Assembly: GCA_964451415.1 (NCBI GenBank) | Contig: CAYVHU010000014.1 | Coordinates: 6,521-70,520, forward strand | DNA: 64,000 nucleotides | Origin: an uncultured Magnetovibrio sp. | GTDB lineage: Bacteria > Pseudomonadota > Alphaproteobacteria > Rhodospirillales > Magnetovibrionaceae | Reading direction: 5' to 3' | In this document: positions 1 through 64,000 of the stretch, piece by piece | How positions within the stretch are numbered: position 1 is the stretch's first letter | Layout of the letters: each line of letters opens with the position of its first letter | Translations under genes and position numbers: made by a program | The notes under the pieces: generated by a model | The model's database searches: none | What the model saw: the letters and a program-made list of their open reading frames with translations, nothing else | Told to the model about the DNA's origin: nothing

Positions 1-9
1 TCGCCGGCC

Positions 10-1437
10 ATGCGCGGTTTGACGCGTCGTTTGCTGTTGAGTGGGGCCGCCGTGCCCAAGGGCATCAAGCCCGGATCGTTGATTTCGTTGCGTGCGCGGG
101 AATTGGCGGCCATGGGCGATTTTGCGGGCGTCAACGCTCTGCTGGGCGTGGTGCCGGGCTATCGCGGCAATCCGAACCTGCTGCGCGTTGAAATGGACAC
201 ACGTCTGTTGACCGGTGATGTGGCGCGGGCGTGTCAACTCGCCAATGCGAACATCCAAAGTCAGAAATCGGTCTATTGGCAACAGACCTTTAATTTTTGT
301 CAGGCCCTGGATGGGCAGATGGATTCCGCCCGACTGGGCTTGTCCTTGCTGGATGAAATGGGCGTCAAAGATCCCGTTTACACGAAGCTGATCGACGCCA
401 TCATCAACCAAGACAAGACACCTCCGGTGATCGACAGCCTGCCCGATCCGACCCCCTTGCAGTTGGCACTGGCGCGCGTGGCCAACGCCAAATTGCCCCC
501 CGACGTGATTTCGTCGAACCGTTTGGGCGTTCTACGGGCCATCGCCATCAGCCCCAACGCCAACGCGGAACTGCGCCTGGAAGCGGCCGAACGTGCCGAG
601 TCCGCAGGCGCGTTGCCCGTCGATTCCCTGCGTCAGCTTTACGCTTCGATCCGCTTTTCCGCCGATGAATTGAAAAATCCGTTGTCCGCCGCCGCGCGAC
701 GCTCCGGACCCATGAGCCGGGCTTTGCTGTATCGCGCCACGTTGATGCAAACGCTGCCCGCCGCGCAGGCCGAAGCTTTGCAGAGCGCCTTGAAACTGGC
801 GCGCGAGGGGGGGCGATACGCTTCCACCGTGCGCGCGTTTCTGCCCCAGTTGACCCGCCTGAAAGCCAGCAACGATCTGGTCTGGTTTGCCCCCGAGGCG
901 ATTCGTGCGTTTCTCATCATCGGACGCGATCAAGAAGCCACGGCCTGGTTCAATCTTCTGAAGGAAACCGCAGCGACCGATCCGCAAATGGCGCGTGCAC
1001 TGGAATCCCTGATGCCGGTGGCCCGGCTTTCGGGGTTCAAGGGCGCGGACACCTGGAACATGGACCGCCTGGATCCCTGGTGGACGTCCATCAAGGCGCA
1101 GCCGGATGCACGGCGTAAAGGGGCCGTTCTCGGGGCCGCTCTAGCGGGGTTGGGTGAAAATGTTTCCGACAGGATGTGGCTTAAATTAATCGACGGGCCA
1201 ACCCATAAAACCATGCTGGCGCCCTATCCTGCATTGTGGTTTTTGCTCGATAGCGCCGCAACCCAGTCGCGGGTCGGCGAAACGGTTCTGTTGAGCCTGG
1301 TGGTTATGGGTGACGGCGGTCCCGCACGTGCTGAACCGATCGTTTTGTATCGCATCTTGAAATCTTTGCGTTTTATCGGCCTCGATCATGAGGCCCGCGC
1401 GTTGGCACTGGAAGCGGTCGTGGCTGCGGGGATATAG
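10..1437 (+). CDS. conserved hypothetical protein (475 aa in the track). The frame is open back to nt 1, so the true 5' end may lie outside the window.
   Basis: Long ORF with GC-rich third positions, co-directional with and 9 nt upstream of xerD. All overlapping ORFs are antisense or off-frame shadows. I recognised no catalytic motif. Confidence 0.5.
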   Translation: MRGLTRRLLLSGAAVPKGIKPGSLISLRARELAAMGDFAGVNALLGVVPGYRGNPNLLRVEMDTRLLTGDVARACQLANANIQSQKSVYWQQTFNFCQALDGQMDSARLGLSLLDEMGVKDPVYTKLIDAIINQDKTPPVIDSLPDPTPLQLALARVANAKLPPDVISSNRLGVLRAIAISPNANAELRLEAAERAESAGALPVDSLRQLYASIRFSADELKNPLSAAARRSGPMSRALLYRATLMQTLPAAQAEALQSALKLAREGGRYASTVRAFLPQLTRLKASNDLVWFAPEAIRAFLIIGRDQEATAWFNLLKETAATDPQMARALESLMPVARLSGFKGADTWNMDRLDPWWTSIKAQPDARRKGAVLGAALAGLGENVSDRMWLKLIDGPTHKTMLAPYPALWFLLDSAATQSRVGETVLLSLVVMGDGGPARAEPIVLYRILKSLRFIGLDHEARALALEAVVAAGI

Positions 1438-1446
1438 GAAAAGCCG

Positions 1447-2403
1447 ATGGGATGCCGGCGGATTGAGGAAGGACCGGCACCGCGTTCGCTTGGGGTGTTC
1501 CTGGAAATGCTGGCGGCCGAACGTGGTGCGGCGTTCAATACGCTGGAAGGCTACCGCCGCGATCTTGTGGATTTTGCGGCCTTTGCGCAGCGCCGCAAGA
1601 TCGAACTTGAGGATGCGGACGCACAGACTATTCGCGCTTACCTCAAGCATTTGTCGGCGCGCGGCATGGCGGCGCGGACCCAGGCCAGACGTCTGTCGGC
1701 CCTGCGCCAGTTCTATCATTTCCTGTTTGCCGAGCGTTTGCGCGCCGACGATCCCAGCGTTGCGATCGATGGTCCCAAAGCCGGTCGGCCCCTGCCCAAG
1801 TACCTTTCCGAAAAAGAGGTCGAGCGTCTATTGACGTGCGCCGCCAAACACAAGGGGGTGGAGGGCAAGCGGTTGGTGGCGTTGATGGAAATTCTCTATG
1901 CCACGGGGTTGCGCGTGTCGGAACTGGTGGGGCTGCCGGTGGATGCGCTTTCGCGTGACGGACAGGTTCTGATCGTGCGGGGCAAGGGTGCGAAGGAGCG
2001 CATGGCTCCTTTGAGTGAACCGGCGCGCGATGCGATTGCGGCGTATCTTAAGGTGCGGACGCATTTCATTGCACGCACCGTGAAAAGCGTACCGTCCCGG
2101 ATCACATCACGTTATCTGTTTCCCTCGCGCGCGAAGCAGGGCTTTTTGACGCGGGCCCGGTTTGCGCAAATTCTCAAGGCCCTGGCCGTTGATGCCGAAC
2201 TGGATCCGCGGCGCGTGTCTCCCCATGTTTTGCGCCATTCCTTCGCCAGCCATCTTCTGGCCCATGGCGTGGACCTGCGCGCCTTGCAACAGATGCTGGG
2301 TCATGCGGATATCTCCACCACGCAAATTTATACCCATGTTCTGGATGAAAGGCTTAAGCGTCTGGTACAAAGCGCGCACCCCCTGGCGAAGCAAGAGCCT
2401 TGA
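1447..2403 (+). CDS. xerD: site-specific tyrosine recombinase XerD
   Basis: N-terminal core-binding segment 'FLEMLAAERGAAFNTLEGYRRDL'. C-terminal catalytic region 'VSPHVLRHSFASHLLAHGVDLRALQQMLGHADISTTQIYTHV' (HxxR ... nucleophile Y), typical of XerC/XerD. About 318 aa. Confidence 0.9.
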   Translation: MGCRRIEEGPAPRSLGVFLEMLAAERGAAFNTLEGYRRDLVDFAAFAQRRKIELEDADAQTIRAYLKHLSARGMAARTQARRLSALRQFYHFLFAERLRADDPSVAIDGPKAGRPLPKYLSEKEVERLLTCAAKHKGVEGKRLVALMEILYATGLRVSELVGLPVDALSRDGQVLIVRGKGAKERMAPLSEPARDAIAAYLKVRTHFIARTVKSVPSRITSRYLFPSRAKQGFLTRARFAQILKALAVDAELDPRRVSPHVLRHSFASHLLAHGVDLRALQQMLGHADISTTQIYTHVLDERLKRLVQSAHPLAKQEP

Positions 2404-2445
2404 AGCCCCTATCTTTCCTGAGGACCTGTATGTTAGAAAGCCGAC

Positions 2446-3402
2446 ATGAATCATTATCTGGATTTTGAAAAACCCATTGCCGAGTTGGAAGGCAAGATCG
2501 CCGAGCTGCGTCACTTGACGGGCGAAGGCGAAGTCAACATTGTCGAAGAAGTGGGCCGCCTGCAAGCCAAAGTGAACAAGCAGTTGCGCACCCTTTACAC
2601 CAAGTTGACGCCGTGGCAGAAGGCCCAGGTGGCCCGCCATCCGGATCGTCCCCATACCGTGGATTACATAGAAGAGATGATCACGGACTTCACGCCCTTG
2701 GCGGGGGACCGTTTATATGGGGAAGACGCCGCCATGATTGGTGGTCTGGGGCGCTTTCGCGGACGCTCGGTGATGATCATCGGGATCGAAAAAGGGGCCG
2801 ATACGGAAAGCCGTGTGAAGCACAATTTCGGTATGGCCAAGCCCGAAGGGTATCGCAAAGCCCAGCGTTTGATGAAAATGGCGGACCGTTTCAATTTGCC
2901 GGTGATTACCCTTGTGGATACCTCCGGCGCGTTTCCCGGCGCCGACGCCGAGGCCCGCGGTCAGGCGGAGGCCATCGCCAAATCCATCGAGGTCTGTTTC
3001 CAAATTCGTGTGCCTCTGGTTTGTGTCGTAATCGGCGAAGGGGGCTCCGGCGGTGCCATCGCCCTGGCCGGAGCCAACGCGGTTTTGATGCTGGAACACT
3101 CCATTTATTCGGTTATCTCGCCGGAAGGCTGTGCCTCGATTTTGTGGCGTGACGGGGCGATGAACAAGGAAGCCGCCGCTGCCTTGCGTTTGACCGTTCA
3201 AGACCTGGACCAGTTGGGGGTGATCGACGCGGTGATCCCCGAACCTCTGGGCGGGGCGCACCGCGACCCCAAAGCGGCGATCCACGCGGTGGCGGAAGAA
3301 ATTTCCCGCCAGTTAGAAGCGTTGACCGCCTTCGATGGCGGGCAACTGCGTGCCAAGCGGCGTGAGAAATTTCTCGAAATGGGGCAAAAGGGCCTGGGGT
3401 GA
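2446..3402 (+). CDS. accA: acetyl-CoA carboxylase carboxyltransferase alpha subunit
   Basis: '[18 protein letters not shown]', '[29 protein letters not shown]' and '[15 protein letters not shown]' are hallmark AccA segments. 318 aa. Confidence 0.93.
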
Positions 3403-3423
3403 GGGTGTCGCCTCGGGCTTTTC

Positions 3424-3494
3424 GTTCACAGCATGAACAAAGGATTGACGGCCCTTGTGAAGGGGCGTTAAAAAGGTGTGTTCAGTCTGTGAAC
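3424..3494 (+). promoter_or_regulatory. candidate promoter/operator: two copies of the palindrome GTTCA-N5-TGAAC flanking a sigma70-like TTGACG-17nt-TTAAAA
   Basis: GTTCAcagcaTGAAC at 3424..3438 and GTTCAgtctgTGAAC at 3480..3494. TTGACG at 3445..3450, a 17-nt spacer, TTAAAA at 3468..3473. It lies in the accA-regulator intergenic region. Confidence 0.35.
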
Positions 3495-3514
3495 GTGGGA
3501 GGAGCCCTAGGGTC

Positions 3515-4168
3515 GTGTCCGAACAAGGCGGCGTAAAAGGTGAACTGAAGCTGACGGACCGCACTATGTTGGGTCTGTTGGCGGAGCTTGAAGACAGCAA
3601 GGCTGTGACCCAGCGCGGTCTGGCCGTACGGCTCGGCGTTGCTTTGGGCTTGGTCAACAGTTTGCTGAAACGTGCGATACGAAAGGGTCTGGTCAAGGTC
3701 GTTCAGGTGCCGGCCAGGCGCTACGCCTATTACGTCACGCCCAAGGGTTTCGGCGAGAAAAGTCGTTTGGTGGCGGAATACCTTTCCAGTTCCTTGGACT
3801 TTTTCCGTCAGGCGCGCGATGAATTTTCGGCTGTTTACGCTGCCGCGGAAGCTCGTGGTTTGAGCCGCGTGGTTTTTTTCGGCACGGGGGAACTGGCGGA
3901 AATCGCTATGTTGTCGGCGCGCGACAGCGGCCTTGATGTTGTGGGCGTTGTCCAGCCCGGGGCTAATCAGGCGCGTTTTTCAGGTCTTTCGGTGATTAAT
4001 AGCTTAGATGCGCTTAAGGACATGGACATTGAAGCGGTGGTCATCACCGGCACCGATGATCCGCAACGCGCCTATACTTTATTGCGCGAGCATTTCGCCG
4101 ATGGGCGTATTTTGGTCGCGCCGTTGCTGCACGTCAGCCGCCAACCCGATGGGGAGGGCGCACAATGA
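3515..4168 (+). CDS. winged-helix (MarR-like) transcriptional regulator with a C-terminal Rossmann-like domain. The start is ambiguous (track 3476, GTG 3515, ATG 3566).
   Basis: wHTH segment 'AVTQRGLAVRLGVALGLVNSLLKRAIRKGLVKVVQVPARRYAYYVTPKGF', then 'RVVFFGTGELAEIAMLSA...VVGVVQP'. AGGAG at 3500..3504 precedes GTG 3515. The track start at 3476 would overlap the second palindrome and the putative -10. The stop overlaps the next start (ATGA). Confidence 0.6.
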   Translation: MSEQGGVKGELKLTDRTMLGLLAELEDSKAVTQRGLAVRLGVALGLVNSLLKRAIRKGLVKVVQVPARRYAYYVTPKGFGEKSRLVAEYLSSSLDFFRQARDEFSAVYAAAEARGLSRVVFFGTGELAEIAMLSARDSGLDVVGVVQPGANQARFSGLSVINSLDALKDMDIEAVVITGTDDPQRAYTLLREHFADGRILVAPLLHVSRQPDGEGAQ

Positions 4169-4662
4169 AGGCGTGGTTCGTGGTGCGCACCAAGACCGGC
4201 GCGGAAGATCGCGCGCGGTGGCATTTGAACAATCAGGATTTTGAGGTTTATCTGCCTCGATATCGCAAGACCATCCGTCACGCGCGCAAGACCTCAACCG
4301 TGTTGCGCGCGCTGTTTCCGGGATATTTGTTTGTGCGCATGGACACCGAACAGCAACGCTGGCGCGCCATCAACGGCACGCTGGGGGTCATTTCCCTGGT
4401 GCAGCTTGGCGATGGCCCATGTGCGATTTCCGACGGGATCGTCAACGCCGTTCGCGAACGTGAAGAAGGCGGTGTGGTGAGCTTGGCTCCCAACGGCCTG
4501 AAACCCGGAGACCACGTCCGCGTGCGCGAAGGTGTGTTCGCCGATCACACGGCCTTGCTGGCGGAAGTGTCCGACGACAGACGTGTGATCTTGCTTTTAA
4601 ACCTGATGGGCCGCGAAGTGCGCGTCAGTGCAAGCAGAGAAGACCTCGCCAAGGCGTCTTAA
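4165..4662 (+). CDS. NusG-family operon-specific antiterminator, RfaH-like (NGN + KOW domains)
   Basis: 165 aa. 'WFVVRTKTGAEDRARWHL...', 'LFPGYLFVRMD' (NGN), 'PGDHVRVREGVFADHTALL' (KOW) and 'LLLNLMGREVRVS' parallel the E. coli RfaH architecture. It sits directly upstream of the glycan operons. Confidence 0.75.
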   Translation: MKAWFVVRTKTGAEDRARWHLNNQDFEVYLPRYRKTIRHARKTSTVLRALFPGYLFVRMDTEQQRWRAINGTLGVISLVQLGDGPCAISDGIVNAVREREEGGVVSLAPNGLKPGDHVRVREGVFADHTALLAEVSDDRRVILLLNLMGREVRVSASREDLAKAS

Positions 4663-59343: not shown

Positions 59344-60480
59344 ATGGCCATTCCTTTTATTGATTTACAGGCCCAGCGCCGCGCCCTGGGCAGCGAACTG
59401 AATGAGGCTATCGCACGGGTTCTGGCGCGCGGTGATTTCATTCAAGGTCATGAAGTGCGTGAATTCGAACGCGCCTTGGCGGACTTTACAGGGGCCGTCC
59501 ATGTGGTGAGCTGCGCCAACGGCACCGATGCCTTGAGCCTGGTCGGTATGGCCGAAGATGTGGGGGCCGGGGACGCGGTATTCGTGCCCGCGTTTACCTT
59601 TGTCGCCACAGCCGAGGCCTTTGCGCTTCTGGGTGCGACACCGTATTTCGTGGATGTGGACGCGCGGACCTTCAACATGGATGTCGAGAGCCTTAAGGCG
59701 GGCATTGCGGACGCGCGGACCCGGGGCCTCACCCCTAAAATGGTAGTCGCGGTTGATCTGTTCGGTCAGCCTGCGGACTATGAAGCCATTGCCCCCGTGG
59801 TGCGTGAAAACGACATGGTGCTGGTCGCCGACGCCGCCCAGGCGCTGGGTGCGGCCCAGGCGCTGGGGGGCTCACTCCATGGCAAGAAAGTGGGGACGCT
59901 GGCGGATTACACCACCACCAGCTTTTTTCCCGCCAAGCCGCTGGGATGTTACGGCGACGGCGGCGCGGTGCTGTGCGCGGATGGGGACAAGGCGGCGCTG
60001 ATCAAGTCCCTCACCCAGCACGGCAAGGGCAGGGAAAAGTACGACAACGTGCGCATCGGCATGAACAGCCGCTTGGATACGCTGCAAGGCGCGATTTTGA
60101 TGGAAAAGCTGAAGATTTACGAAACCGAAGTGGCGGCGCGAAACGCAAGCGCCGCGCGCTATACCCAGGCGCTCAGGGATGTTGTCGAGACACCTGTTGT
60201 GCGGGACGGGGCGACGTCGTGCTGGGCGCAGTACACCTTGAAGCTTGAGAATCGCGACGCCGTACGGGCGCACTTGAAAGACGCCGGCGTCCCCAGTGCG
60301 GTGTACTACCCCATGCCCCTCAACCGACAGGGCGGCTATGCCGATTGTCCATCTGTTCCCGGCGGCGTGGCGGTGTCGGAGGCCCTGTCCCAACAGGTCC
60401 TGAGCCTGCCCATGCACGCCTATCTGGACACTCCCACACAGAACATTATCATTGAGGCCGTGAAGGCAATGCTTAAATGA
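59344..60480 (+). CDS. wbpE: DegT-family aminotransferase, WbpE-like
   Basis: 'IPFIDLQAQRRALGSELNEAIARVL', 'CANGTDAL' and 'TSFFPAKPLGCYGDGGAV'. Confidence 0.85.
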   Translation: MAIPFIDLQAQRRALGSELNEAIARVLARGDFIQGHEVREFERALADFTGAVHVVSCANGTDALSLVGMAEDVGAGDAVFVPAFTFVATAEAFALLGATPYFVDVDARTFNMDVESLKAGIADARTRGLTPKMVVAVDLFGQPADYEAIAPVVRENDMVLVADAAQALGAAQALGGSLHGKKVGTLADYTTTSFFPAKPLGCYGDGGAVLCADGDKAALIKSLTQHGKGREKYDNVRIGMNSRLDTLQGAILMEKLKIYETEVAARNASAARYTQALRDVVETPVVRDGATSCWAQYTLKLENRDAVRAHLKDAGVPSAVYYPMPLNRQGGYADCPSVPGGVAVSEALSQQVLSLPMHAYLDTPTQNIIIEAVKAMLK

Positions 60481-60512
60481 AAGTGAAATGCGCAATCCGG
60501 TGAGGACATAGG

Positions 60513-63500
60513 ATGCAGTTCATCAAAAACGGCCCGGATATTCCCGAACGCTTACTACAAGCGCATGAAGAGGGGCGCGTGGTGTTTTTTTGTGGTGCTG
60601 GCATTTCTTACCCAGCCGGGTTGCCAGACTTCGAGAAACTTGTAAAACAGATATTTAAGTTTCTTGAAATGACACCCGATGCTGTGCAGAACACAGCAAC
60701 CAAGGCCAAGCAATTCGATACAGCTATTAACCTTCTGGAATCCAACATCATTGGCGGGCGTGAGGCCGTGCGCAATGCCTTGGCAAATATCTTGACCCCT
60801 GACCTTGGCAAGCGGGATGCTACAGCGACACATGATGCATTGTTGACGTTAGGAAGGAACCGTGAAAGGCAAACGCGCCTGATCACCACCAACTTTGACC
60901 GGCTGTTTGAGACGGTGATTGTAAACAAAGAACTGTCGGTTGAACGTTTTCGCGCCCCGTTGCTACCGGTTCCAAAAAAACGCTGGGATGGGCTTGTTTA
61001 CCTGCATGGTCTGCTGACAGAAACACCAACTTCAAATGACCTGGATCGTCTGGTTCTGTCCAGCGGCGACTTTGGCCTAGCATACCTTACCGAACGCTGG
61101 GCATCCCGCTTCGTCAGTGAACTGTTTCGTAACTACATTGTTTGTTTTGTCGGTTACAGTATCAACGACCCAGTTCTGCGATACATGATGGACGCGCTCG
61201 CTGCCGACCTTTTGTTGGGTGAGAGCCCACCGGAAATGTTTGCATTCGGTAGCTATTCCAAGGGCAAGGAAGAGAAATGCACCAACGAATGGCAAGCCAA
61301 GAATGTGACACCCATTCTCTATCGCGAACACAAGCGTCATGCATACTTGCACAAGACCTTGAGAACCTGGGCCGAGATTTATCGTGATGGTATTCGCGGC
61401 AAGGAACGCATCGTCGTCGAAAGTGCCATGGCTCGCCCTTTGGCGAGCACCAAGCAGGACGATTTTGTAGGTCGTCTCCTTTGGGCAATAAGCGATCCCC
61501 AAGGTCTACCGGCCAAGCGCTTTGCAGAGCATAATCCAGTGCCTTCTCTGGATTGGCTGGAACCATTGAGTGAAAACCGTTATGGACATGCCGACCTGCG
61601 CCGTTTTGGCGTGACGCCAAGGCCCGCTCAAGACGATAAACTTTCATTCAGTCTTACTTGTAGGCCGCTGCCCTACGACCTAGCCCCACGGATGGCTCTT
61701 GTCGGTGTTGGTGTATACAGCACACTATGGGACAAAGTGATGCTGCAGCTTGCCCAATGGTTGGTGCGGCATCTTGGTGATCCGGCCCTCCTGCTATGGT
61801 TGGTTAAGCGTGGTGGTCAGTTGCACGAAGACCTAATCCGGTTAATCAAAGGTGAGCTGAGCAAGTTAACCAAGCTCGAACGCGATGGCGACACGGGTGA
61901 ATTGAACCGGACCCGCGCCAACGCTCCGAATGCTATTCCGGACTCAAACATGCGAACGCTTTGGCGTTTGCTACTGTCCGGGCGTGTGAAATCATTTGCG
62001 TACAAAAATGATCTCTATTCGTGGTGTGACAGCTTCAAGCGCGACAGCCTGACAACCACCTTGCGCTTAGAACTTCGCAAAATACTGACTCCTCGCGTGT
62101 TACTGCGCGAACCGTTTTTCGGATCAGAGGGGAACGGCGAAAATGGCGATCCACAACACGTAGAGGACATCGTCGATTGGGATGTCGTGCTATTCACGGA
62201 CCATGTTCATTCTGGCCTATCCAATCTAACAAATGATCAGGGCTGGGCTGATGTTCTCCCCGACCTATTGCCTGACTTTGGCTCGCTGCTACGTGATGCT
62301 CTCGACCTCAAGCGGGAACTCGGAGGGGCTGACGATAAAAGAGATTTGTCCTACATAAATCAGCCTTCAATCAGCCAGCATGCGCAAAATAGTAACTTTC
62401 GCGACTGGACGGCTCTTATTGAACTGACGCGTGACGCCTGGTTGGCAACATTAGCCAAATCTCCTGAACGAGCCCGTCTTACAGCCGAATCCTGGTGGTT
62501 CGTGCCCTATCCTTTATTCCGGCGTTTAGCGTTTTTTGCTGCGACACAAGAATCCGTCATCCCTACTCACCAAGCACTCGACTGGTTGCTAAACGACGAT
62601 CATTGGTGGCTTTGGTCGACTGAAACCAAACATGAAGCTCTACGTCTTCTGATCTTCTTGGCACCGAAAATAGATCAGACTGATCGGGATAGACTCGTGC
62701 AAGCTATCTTAGGCGGCCCCCCGCGCGCCATGTTTGAGAAGGACATTGAGACCGAGAATTTGAACCAAATAATGGAACGAGATATTTGGTTGCGTCTTGC
62801 CAAAATGGAAAATATCGGATCAATGTTAAATATTGCCGGGAAAAAGCGCCTGGACGAACTTTCAATCAAATATCCACAATGGAAACTTGCTAAAGACGAG
62901 CAGGACGAATTCCCGTACTGGCGTGATGATGGTAATGAATGGCGAAAATTTGTTGCCACGCCGCGTCTTCGTCGCGATCTGATCGAATGGCTCAAGCAAC
63001 ATCCCAGCGCGGATCCTTGGCACGGTGATGATTGGCAAAAACGCTGCCGAGACGACTTTGCCACCACAGCATGTGCCTTGCGTGCGCTAGCCAATGAGAA
63101 AAAGTGGTCTGAAGACCGGTGGCGCAAAGCATTGCAAGCTTGGTCAGAGGAAAAACTAATCAAGCGCGCGTGGCGTTACATGGCACCAGTGGTCGTTGAT
63201 ATTCCTGACGAGGTGTTGCAAGAGCTCGCCCACGCTATCAGTCGGTGGCTGCAAAGCATCTCCAAGATTTTAGACTGCCATGACGCCCTCTTTTTTAACC
63301 TTGCTCACCGTATCCTGTCGTTGGATCATCAAGATGGGACCGACACCGACGATCCCGTAACACGCGCCATTAACCACCCCGTAGGCCATGTGACAGAGGC
63401 ATTGCTGAACTGGTGGTATCAAAAAAAACCGGAAGATGAGCAAGGCTTGCCTGACGAGATCAGGCCAATTTTAACCGAACTTTGTGATACACAATCCGAC

Positions 63501-64000
63501 AAGTTCAGACATGGCCGAGTATTGCTGGCGGCGCATGCGATCTTCTTGTTTCGCGTTGACAGGCAATGGACTGAAGAATACCTGTTGCCACTGTTTGACT
63601 GGAATCGCTCCGTGGATGAGGCCCGTGCCGCATGGGAAGGGTTTCTCTGGTCGTCACGCTTTTATGGTCCTTTAATGGAAGCGATCAAGCCCGCCTTCCT
63701 CGACACCGCACAACATTATACATCTTTCAGTAAACATAACGAACAGTACGCTGACTTCCTGACATTTTCTGCACTTGAGCACAGAGACATCTTTACAATC
63801 ACAGAATTGGCCAGTGCTACCCGCGCATTGCCGTCAGACGGTCTTATAAAAGCCGTTCAGGTTCTGGTTTGTACTCTCGAAGAAGCGGGGGGGCAGCGTT
63901 CCAACTATTGGAAAAATAGGATTGTTCCCTATCTCAATAAGATTTGGCCAAAGGCGCGGGACCGCAAATCGCCGGCTATTGCGGAAAGTCTTGGGCGCTT
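60513..64000 (+). CDS. very large SIR2-domain (SIR2_2-type) protein, 3' end outside the window (more than 1,162 codons). Candidate sirtuin-type NADase defence effector (DSR-like).
   Basis: Not in the supplied ORF track because it has no stop in the window. I translated the frame by hand from ATG 60513 (GAGGA 7 nt upstream) to 64000 and saw no stop. N-terminus: 'RVVFFCGAGISYPAGLPDFEKL', 'RLITTNFDRLFE', 'WDGLVYLHGL', 'LVLSSGDFGLAY' and 'FVGYSINDPVL'. This matches the GAG / TTN.D / H-G / G-Y-S pattern of the SIR2_2 family and is followed by about 900 aa of W-rich, helical-looking sequence. Confidence 0.65.
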   Translation, partial: MQFIKNGPDIPERLLQAHEEGRVVFFCGAGISYPAGLPDFEKLVKQIFKFLEMTPDAVQNTATKAKQFDTAINLLESNIIGGREAVRNALANILTPDLGKRDATATHDALLTLGRNRERQTRLITTNFDRLFETVIVNKELSVERFRAPLLPVPKKRWDGLVYLHGLLTETPTSNDLDRLVLSSGDFGLAYLTERWASRFVSELFRNYIVCFVGYSINDPVLRYMMDALAADLLLGESPPEMFAFGSYSKGKEEKCTNEWQAKNVTPILYREHKRHAYLHKTLRTWAEIYRDGIRGKERIVVESAMARPLASTKQDDFVGRLLWAISDPQGLPAKRFAEHNPVPSLDWLEPLSENRYGHADLRRFGVTPRPAQDDKLSFSLTCRPLPYDLAPRMALVGVGVYSTLWDKVMLQLAQWLVRHLGDPALLLWLVKRGGQLHEDLIRLIKGELSKLTKLERDGDTGELNRTRANAPNAIPDSNMRTLWRLLLSGRVKSFAYKNDLYSWCDSFKRDSLTTTLRLELRKILTPRVLLREPFFGSEGNGENGDPQHVEDIVDWDVVLFTDHVHSGLSNLTNDQGWADVLPDLLPDFGSLLRDALDLKRELGGADDKRDLSYINQPSISQHAQNSNFRDWTALIELTRDAWLATLAKSPERARLTAESWWFVPYPLFRRLAFFAATQESVIPTHQALDWLLNDDHWWLWSTETKHEALRLLIFLAPKIDQTDRDRLVQAILGGPPRAMFEKDIETENLNQIMERDIWLRLAKMENIGSMLNIAGKKRLDELSIKYPQWKLAKDEQDEFPYWRDDGNEWRKFVATPRLRRDLIEWLKQHPSADPWHGDDWQKRCRDDFATTACALRALANEKKWSEDRWRKALQAWSEEKLIKRAWRYMAPVVVDIPDEVLQELAHAISRWLQSISKILDCHDALFFNLAHRILSLDHQDGTDTDDPVTRAINHPVGHVTEALLNWWYQKKPEDEQGLPDEIRPILTELCDTQSDKFRHGRVLLAAHAIFLFRVDRQWTEEYLLPLFDWNRSVDEARAAWEGFLWSSRFYGPLMEAIKPAFLDTAQHYTSFSKHNEQYADFLTFSALEHRDIFTITELASATRALPSDGLIKAVQVLVCTLEEAGGQRSNYWKNRIVPYLNKIWPKARDRKSPAIAESLGR

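Follow-up and report, generated by a model that had tools for sequence, protein, structure and literature searches.

What is the long open reading frame (ORF) that runs off the end of a stretch of DNA from an uncultured Magnetovibrio sp., and does it still encode a whole protein? The stretch, referred to below as the window, covers 64,000 nucleotides (positions 6521-70520 of contig CAYVHU010000014.1, here called C14, which ends at 70657). A reading made from its sequence alone had proposed that the frame at the far end of the window encodes a single-gene defence protein of the DSR1/DSR2 type, composed of an N-terminal SIR2 domain and a large C-terminal sensor. Judged by its sequence, the ORF is dsr1 (defence-associated sirtuin 1), a one-gene anti-phage system whose family is already known. 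Taken as a whole, the data make it very probable that dsr1 was horizontally acquired within a surface-polysaccharide cluster and was later cut at codon 1191 by an insertion sequence (IS) of the IS5 family, which left an inactive or impaired allele. The locus thus combines a known system with an ordinary decay event by IS insertion.

The part of dsr1 that falls within the window, codons 1-1162, occupies positions 60513-64000 on the forward strand. The frame that opens with the ATG at 60513 is free of stops up to the final complete codon in the window, as seen both in an ORF list that allowed open ends and in the translation, and retranslation revealed no frameshift within the window. The long open frame and the good Shine-Dalgarno sequence described earlier are confirmed; the latter, GAGGA, was read directly in the sequence at 60502-60506 (forward strand), 6 nt before the ATG. 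The ordinary ORF track lacks the gene because the frame has no stop inside the window. Beyond the window, the native frame continues for 29 more codons, to codon 1191 (C14 70605, equivalent to window position 64085).

The assignment to dsr1 is carried by two curated models and by the identity to homologues. The NCBIfam equivalog NF041818 ('anti-phage defense-associated sirtuin Dsr1') scored 1807 bits for the 1162 amino acids encoded in the window, against a curated cut-off of 1400, and 1845.9 bits on contig C14, where model positions 1-1200 of 1263 were covered. The PADLOC Dsr1 model PDLC02183 aligned its positions 1-1179 of 1275 with aa 1-1162 (1535 bits). The proposal of a SIR2 defence protein that is encoded by one gene and ends in a large sensor is supported, and the two models narrow it from DSR1/DSR2 to Dsr1 specifically. 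In a large protein collection, the best 120 of 3901 relatives were 1245-1266 aa long and 66-72% identical over the whole query. Many of these 120 are named Dsr1 by NCBI or UniRef (the proteins with that name are 1250-1266 aa long and 67-72% identical), and their hosts include Stenotrophomonas, Pseudomonas, Alcanivorax, Caldimonas, Parvibaculum, Desulfobulbus, and others. Two E. coli Dsr1 proteins annotated by the Prokaryotic Genome Annotation Pipeline (1274 and 1276 aa), which are different from the experimentally tested EcDsr1 (WP_029488749.1), were 50% identical to the window protein over aa 1-1191 (BLASTP). Annotated dsr1 genes with detectable DNA similarity in the SIR2 part were present in 90 of 5426 complete E. 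coli genomes.

Partner genes had been expected to lie outside the window. Since Dsr1 is a one-gene system, none are missing; the neighbours here are glycan enzymes, and those of the homologues vary (BREX, type I restriction-modification, integrase, or hypothetical genes). Complete Dsr1 frames have ca. 1250-1275 codons, and here the native frame ends at codon 1191, at the junction with an IS. We conclude that the window gene is a Dsr1 member by descent, yet an interrupted allele.

The predicted NADase effector, a SIR2 domain of the SIR2_2 type, makes up ca. aa 1-300 (60513-61412, forward strand) and is recognized by ThsA and LmuA models, by a match to KomC, and by Pfam SIR2_2 (PF13289; aa 122-268, positions 60876-61316, E=5e-23). 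The SIR2 motifs that had been quoted from the sequence, G28-A29-G30, T125-T126-N127-F128-D129, L164-H165-G166, and G214-Y215-S216-I217-N218-D219-P220, were each found in the translation at the residue given for them. All of these residues are invariant in 28 aligned homologues, including the two E. coli Dsr1 proteins, except I217, which is at least 90% conserved. The predicted catalytic asparagine, Asn127 (in TTNFD; codon at 60891-60893, forward strand), and the predicted catalytic histidine, His165 (in YLHG; codon at 61005-61007, forward strand), are invariant both in the 28 homologues and in a set of 50. The nearest solved protein in a sequence search of the PDB was the SIR2 NADase KomC (PDB 8zsf; aa 12-262, E=2e-5), and no solved Dsr1 was found in that search. 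In the alignment with KomC, Asn127 corresponds to the asparagine of TTNYD and His165 to His146, the residue altered in PDB entry 9xvc, 'KomC(H146N)'. The profile match, the invariance in homologues, and the KomC alignment all support a SIR2_2-type N-terminus with an Asn127/His165 pair.

The remainder of the protein, ca. aa 301-1162 in the window (61413-64000, forward strand) and natively up to aa 1255, is predicted by AlphaFold2 (AF2) and by homology to be an alpha-helical repeat domain; its predicted role as a sensor comes from the literature. The AF2 model, built with 50 homologues, is all-alpha, and aa 840-1180 form stacked helical pairs with predicted local distance difference test (pLDDT) values of 85-95. 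A Foldseek search of the PDB returned only generic HEAT/ARM-like alpha-solenoids (CAND1, SF3B1, karyopherins), with template modelling (TM) scores of 0.1-0.28. An exhaustive search in which the sensor (aa 301-1162) was the sole query (clusters at 50% identity) yielded 2662 clusters at E≤0.001, of which 760 were at E≤1e-30. Among the best 150 matches, full-length proteins matched from near residue 300 of ca. 1250 aa onwards, and the other entries were shorter and without the N-terminal part, including proteins of 960-1040 aa with no Pfam domain. All of these 150 were SIR2-fused or stand-alone sensor proteins, and Avs7 or other effector fusions were not reached among them. Four proteins in the representative library (P0122, P0134, P0139, and P0152) are of the latter kind: they are 960-1040 aa long, consist of a Dsr1-type sensor only (up to 55% identity), and have no SIR2 or other Pfam domain. 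Such proteins are possibly split Dsr1 systems, or sensors that work with a separate effector.

DSR1 was reportedly described in Gao et al. 2020. The protein lowers NAD+ on infection and blocks phage phi29 in B. subtilis, the depletion being transient and without collapse of the culture (Garb et al., bioRxiv 10.1101/2021.12.14.472415); phage NAD+-reconstitution pathways overcome it (10.1101/2024.02.11.579819). The label of abortive infection, which the sequence-only reading had used, is therefore apt only in part for DSR1. Dsr1 and Avs7 (antiviral STAND family 7) have homologous bilobed helical-repeat sensors that recognize phage major capsid proteins, and in phage ZL19 the major capsid protein was the only E. 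coli Dsr1 trigger to be found, while disruption of the NADase domain abolished toxicity (bioRxiv 10.64898/2026.01.04.697583). By analogy, the sensor of the window protein would bind a structural protein that the phage makes late during infection (for E. coli Dsr1, the major capsid protein), and this binding would free the SIR2 domain to split NAD+ into ADP-ribose and nicotinamide by hydrolysis. The loss of NAD+ would then starve the phage, and sometimes the cell.

The window protein has the same end-to-end architecture as the Dsr1 proteins defined by NF041818, the PADLOC Dsr1 model, and EcDsr1, i.e., a SIR2_2 domain of ca. 300 aa and a helical sensor of ca. 950 aa in one gene, with the same Asn/His pair, and those genes are likewise patchy in occurrence and horizontally spread. 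Unlike them, the window copy is interrupted by an IS at codon 1191 of 1255 and lies in a polysaccharide cluster rather than in a defence island or integrase islet. Avs7, whose sensor kinship with Dsr1 is known from the preprint, has a STAND NTPase and other effectors, neither of which is present in the window protein. DSR2 of Bacillus subtilis works on the same principle (one large protein that begins with a SIR2 NADase and ends in a helical sensor), but its sensor is unrelated by sequence to that of the window protein, which gave no Dsr2 model match and only a generic structural one. The DSR2 sensor binds a phage tail tube protein, and NAD+ depletion follows. KomC (PDB 8zsf) and Thoeris ThsA have SIR2 domains homologous to that of the window protein, with aligning catalytic Asn and His; unlike it, they are short proteins without the Dsr1 sensor. 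Both are activated by partner proteins or signalling molecules.

The gene is rare among relatives. Three of 41 relatives, this genome included, had any match, and the matches in the other two were distant (24-39% identity, fragments). Out of 301 genomes of the order, 21 had a Dsr1-like match at E≤1e-50, and only the present genome passed the equivalog cut-off, so that a conserved housekeeping gene, the finding that had been named as fatal to the defence proposal, was not what was observed. The compositional difference from the surroundings, earlier judged by eye, was borne out by counting: the GC content of dsr1 is 0.509 (genome mean, 0.567), and its GC content at third codon positions (GC3) is 0.528, versus 0.73-0.74 in the three upstream genes and 0.65-0.73 in the four downstream genes. 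As few as 3.4% of 3.5-kb segments of the genome are as GC-poor as dsr1. The closest homologue (72% identity; JBGCVJ010291641.1, 1-9780) is the last gene of a BREX cluster, right after genes for a pglX-type methylase, pglZ, and brxL. The start of another, at 69% identity (BPKF01000005.1, 645-14452), abuts the hsdS stop of an hsdR-hsdM-hsdS set, with RelB/ParE-type toxin-antitoxin genes downstream, and the E. coli dsr1 copies adjoin a tyrosine integrase at the yjjG site. Because of the patchy spread, the foreign composition, and the presence of homologues beside defence systems or an integrase, we regard dsr1 as a mobile defence gene and not a housekeeping one; on this evidence, it is horizontally acquired. 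Distant Dsr1-like genes were seen in two relatives of the same family (G002:C8 and G007:C98), with 39% identity for the SIR2 part and 24-39% for the sensor. Each was recovered in more than one piece, the open frames being 632-743 aa long, and the genes may be broken or split.

Could the frame encode a member of another SIR2 family, such as DSR2, Thoeris ThsA, SIR2-HerA, Avs5, or prokaryotic Argonaute-associated SIR2, with the necessary partners located off the contig? The SIR2 domain alone does weakly match the PADLOC ThsA model (E=1e-11), LmuA, and generic SIR2 defence models, and the DSR2 structure 8wkt appeared in the fold-search list, at rank 29 with a TM score of about 0.1 and without significance. 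However, these model matches span aa 13-264 only, whereas the Dsr1 models align end to end; no Dsr2 model was among the 11 PADLOC matches obtained at E up to 1, and Pfam, PADLOC, and NCBIfam gave no signal for Dsr2, HerA, Argonaute, or a STAND NTPase. The flanks on both sides are glycan enzymes, and homologues at different loci have different neighbours. We consider membership in another SIR2 family very improbable. A housekeeping or glycan-pathway sirtuin, i.e., a CobB-like deacylase or an enzyme of the polysaccharide cluster, is an idea that draws on the tight packing of the gene behind glycan genes of the same strand (the gap is 32 nt). Yet the CobB-type NCBIfam deacylase models, with cut-offs of 221 and 243 bits, gave scores of 14.9 and 10.9 bits, the gene is absent from 38 of the 41 relatives, its composition is foreign, and its homologues reside in defence islands and not in glycan loci, which makes this explanation hardly credible. 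The assignment to dsr1 is therefore retained in what follows.

What became of the 3' end of dsr1? On C14, the frame stops at 70621-70623 and encodes 1196 aa, versus ca. 1260 in relatives. Homology ends at ...PDYL (aa 1191) and is followed by GCGLN and the stop, five residues without a match in the Dsr1 family. The last 64 codons were found, intact and in frame, at the end of the 4.6-kb contig C24 (4512 to 4333, reverse strand), 52 nt from the contig end; when searched with the C-termini of two homologues by tblastn, this tail piece was 58-60% identical. The 3' end does lie past the window, as had been stated, but not simply so, since an IS cuts the gene ca. 85 nt beyond the window, at codon 1191.

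At the C14 junction, ...TATCTAG is followed by GGTGTGGACTCAATTGACC..., and at the junction on reversed C24, ...GGGTTCAGACC is followed by CTAGTACAT.... CTAG is duplicated at both dsr1-IS junctions, and the terminal repeats of the element are imperfect inverted ones (GGTGTGGACTCAATTGACC and GGTCTGAACCCAATTCAAC), with 14 of 19 bases matching. When the flanks are joined with one CTAG, a single frame of 1255 codons with one terminal stop results. The uninterrupted site would run from ...CCTGATTATCTAG directly into TACATAGGCTTC; the IS-side sequence is GGTGTGGACTC. The ends of the IS are at C14 70603-70657 and C24 4509-4564. The opposite strand of the C14-side end, read inward, encodes ...RRLTTRYEKLSANFLAMVHIFAIRLWVN followed by a stop, the last 28 codons of a transposase that is antisense to dsr1; this 28-aa tail alone gave no Pfam match.

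The C24-side IS end also closes contig C7 (148089-148139), where it stands beside TTAG, and the IS is therefore multi-copy and a cause of contig breaks in the assembly. A 97-nt IS end, extended with a metagenome contig, matched 15 of the 301 genomes of the order. One of them, relative G016, contains a complete 829-bp copy located between two CTAGs, with an end 90% identical to the IS in dsr1 and an ORF for a DDE_Tnp_1 transposase (PF01609, E=1.6e-14) that ends in ...RRLTTRSEKLSSNVLAMVHIFAIRLWVN. Because this full copy carries a DDE_Tnp_1 transposase, we assign the interrupting element, of ca. 0.83 kb, to the IS5 family. With the small subgroup of that family (ca. 0.8 kb, CTAG/YTAR targets), it shares DDE_Tnp_1, imperfect terminal repeats starting with GG, the CTAG duplication, and the occurrence in many copies. 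In another genome, G079 (C3, ca. 1501-1590), 90 nt of the same IS end (87% identity) remain on their own between unrelated genes, with no transposase. At a further locus, L022, no transposase ORF was within reach. Beside the 829-bp copy, G016 has fragments of other IS5-type transposases (C55, 198-912), some with ambiguous bases (X), i.e., an IS-rich patch.

In the sequence of events that these observations suggest, dsr1 would have been acquired horizontally, at a site with a sugar aminotransferase gene on one side and a convergent glycosyltransferase gene on the other, and the IS5-family element of ca. 0.83 kb would later have landed at the CTAG of codon 1191. The ratio of tail identity to body identity is 0.74 for the detached 3' piece, and the family mean is 0.80 (range 0.56-0.90). 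A faster decay of the detached piece than of the gene body was ruled out, its ratio lying within the family range. Because the divergence of the piece is in that range and the CTAG duplication is perfect, we infer that the insertion into dsr1 is recent. Among the tail positions, 18 are at least 90% conserved across 49 homologues, and the C24 piece keeps 13 of the 18. Since conserved positions are lost with the tail, and none of the listed relatives is cut short at that point, the interrupted allele, with 1191 native and 5 IS-derived residues, is probably inactive or impaired.

Two other views of the interruption were weighed. The IS junction could be a minority variant or an assembly artefact, most cells carrying an intact 1255-codon dsr1. 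The source genome is metagenome-derived, with contigs that break at multi-copy IS, assemblers can misthread repeats, and the detached 3' piece shows no extra decay, all of which would be compatible with such a view. Nevertheless, the same dsr1-IS junction was found in three assemblies (C14, the NCBI metagenome contig VAPL010051315.1, and a Logan contig of SRR6439370), and a matching CTAG duplication with inverted repeats is not expected from an artefact. A 37-mer of the left flank occurred once in the metagenome collection, on the IS-bearing contig, while a 39-mer across the uninterrupted site occurred nowhere in it, and the protein collection contained no near-identical full-length protein (the self cluster has 1 member and the next match is 72% identical). 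An artefact or minority variant is therefore quite improbable. An unlikely explanation, though one with an appreciable chance of being correct, is that dsr1 and its IS are real and the truncated 1196-aa protein is a working defence, the last 64 residues being dispensable or their loss only shifting specificity or regulation. The loss amounts to only 5% of the protein and spares the catalytic domain and 890 of ca. 955 sensor residues, the dsr1 frame closes cleanly 5 codons into the IS, and the tail, as its identity ratio indicates (mean 0.80, minimum 0.56), is the part that the family conserves least. The 18 conserved tail positions argue against it, as do the lengths of complete homologues (1250-1266 aa among the relatives named Dsr1, mostly 1190-1330 aa among representatives), the shorter representatives being without the N-terminal SIR2 part or fragments, not C-terminal truncations. 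Alpha-solenoids that lose their terminal helices are commonly destabilized. An interruption that is not neutral decay at all appears improbable: dsr1 might have been switched off as costly or autoimmune, or the clipped protein might have an altered trigger range or basal NADase activity, and the site in a surface-glycan (phage receptor) cluster, where the gene is possibly co-transcribed, might couple receptor variation with intracellular defence.

Several points weigh against our reading of the locus as a horizontally acquired dsr1 inactivated or impaired by an IS. AF2 modelled the SIR2 half poorly (pLDDT mostly below 50; mean of the whole model, 61), and the fold adds nothing specific because the fold search gave only generic alpha-solenoids. 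The NADase activity, trigger, and phage range ascribed to the window protein would be extrapolations from homologues that are ca. 50% identical or less, the E. coli comparison having been made with proteins other than the tested one, and the major capsid protein trigger of EcDsr1 may not hold for the clade of the window protein. The IS in dsr1 is known only from its ends (97 and 52 nt), its body being missing from the assembly. Assemblies drop minority variants, and an intact allele may be present in part of the population. Finally, the tail is where the family is conserved least, and a clipped protein without 64 of 1255 residues might still work.

The surroundings of dsr1 are those of a polysaccharide locus. 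The upstream neighbour, a DegT/DnrJ/EryC1-type sugar aminotransferase gene ('wbpE'; 59344-60480, forward strand; PF01041, E=1.4e-89), ends 32 nt before the dsr1 ATG, the spacing that the sequence-only reading had reported, and belongs to a wbpB/D/E-like set of GFO/IDH/MocA oxidoreductase, hexapeptide acyltransferase, and DegT aminotransferase genes. A promoter-like site, TGGACA and TATCAT separated by 16 nt (60425-60452, forward strand; 10 of 12 consensus positions), lies within the last 60 nt of the aminotransferase gene. One such match was found, versus 0.3 expected in shuffles, and as a consensus match only it is not evidence of function; the site is a possible promoter of dsr1 itself, which would otherwise be transcribed by read-through from the glycan genes.

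On C24, dsr1 converges with a GT4-family glycosyltransferase gene (which also has a weak Pfam 'GT4-conflict' match), and ca. 22 nt separate the two stops. Beyond it, the cluster (363-4292) continues with genes for a GT2 glycosyltransferase, a C-methyltransferase (Methyltransf_13/14, with a zinc-binding N-domain), and a dTDP-4-dehydrorhamnose 3,5-epimerase-like protein. The view that dsr1 marks the distal edge of the glycan island is thus not upheld, since glycosyltransferase, methyltransferase, and epimerase genes continue past it. No integrase or other mobility gene was found beside dsr1, which lies inside the polysaccharide cluster. A defence gene can, then, sit cleanly wedged in a polysaccharide locus with no adjoining mobility gene. 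In annotation, the proper label is dsr1, with a mark for the IS interruption, and maps of the glycan island should extend beyond the gene. Orthologues of the downstream glycosyltransferase are present, at 40-50% identity, in 15 relatives; four orthologue neighbourhoods were examined for an empty site of dsr1 acquisition, and none had the other dsr1-flanking genes. Because synteny is not conserved in relatives, the boundaries of the acquisition are not datable.

At its other end, C24 carries an N-terminal fragment of a DUF4096 (IS4/IS5-type) transposase gene (3-236, reverse strand), the frame of which is broken after ca. 90 codons. This fragment was considered as a part of the IS in dsr1 and rejected, since it comes from another element, a truncated one. 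C24 and contig C20 overlap at their starts: the first 55 nt of C24 match, in reverse complement, positions 1-55 of C20. From this overlap and the dsr1 tail on C24, the likely order of contigs is C14, the IS, and C24 reversed, probably followed by C20, which holds more glycosyltransferase-like genes.

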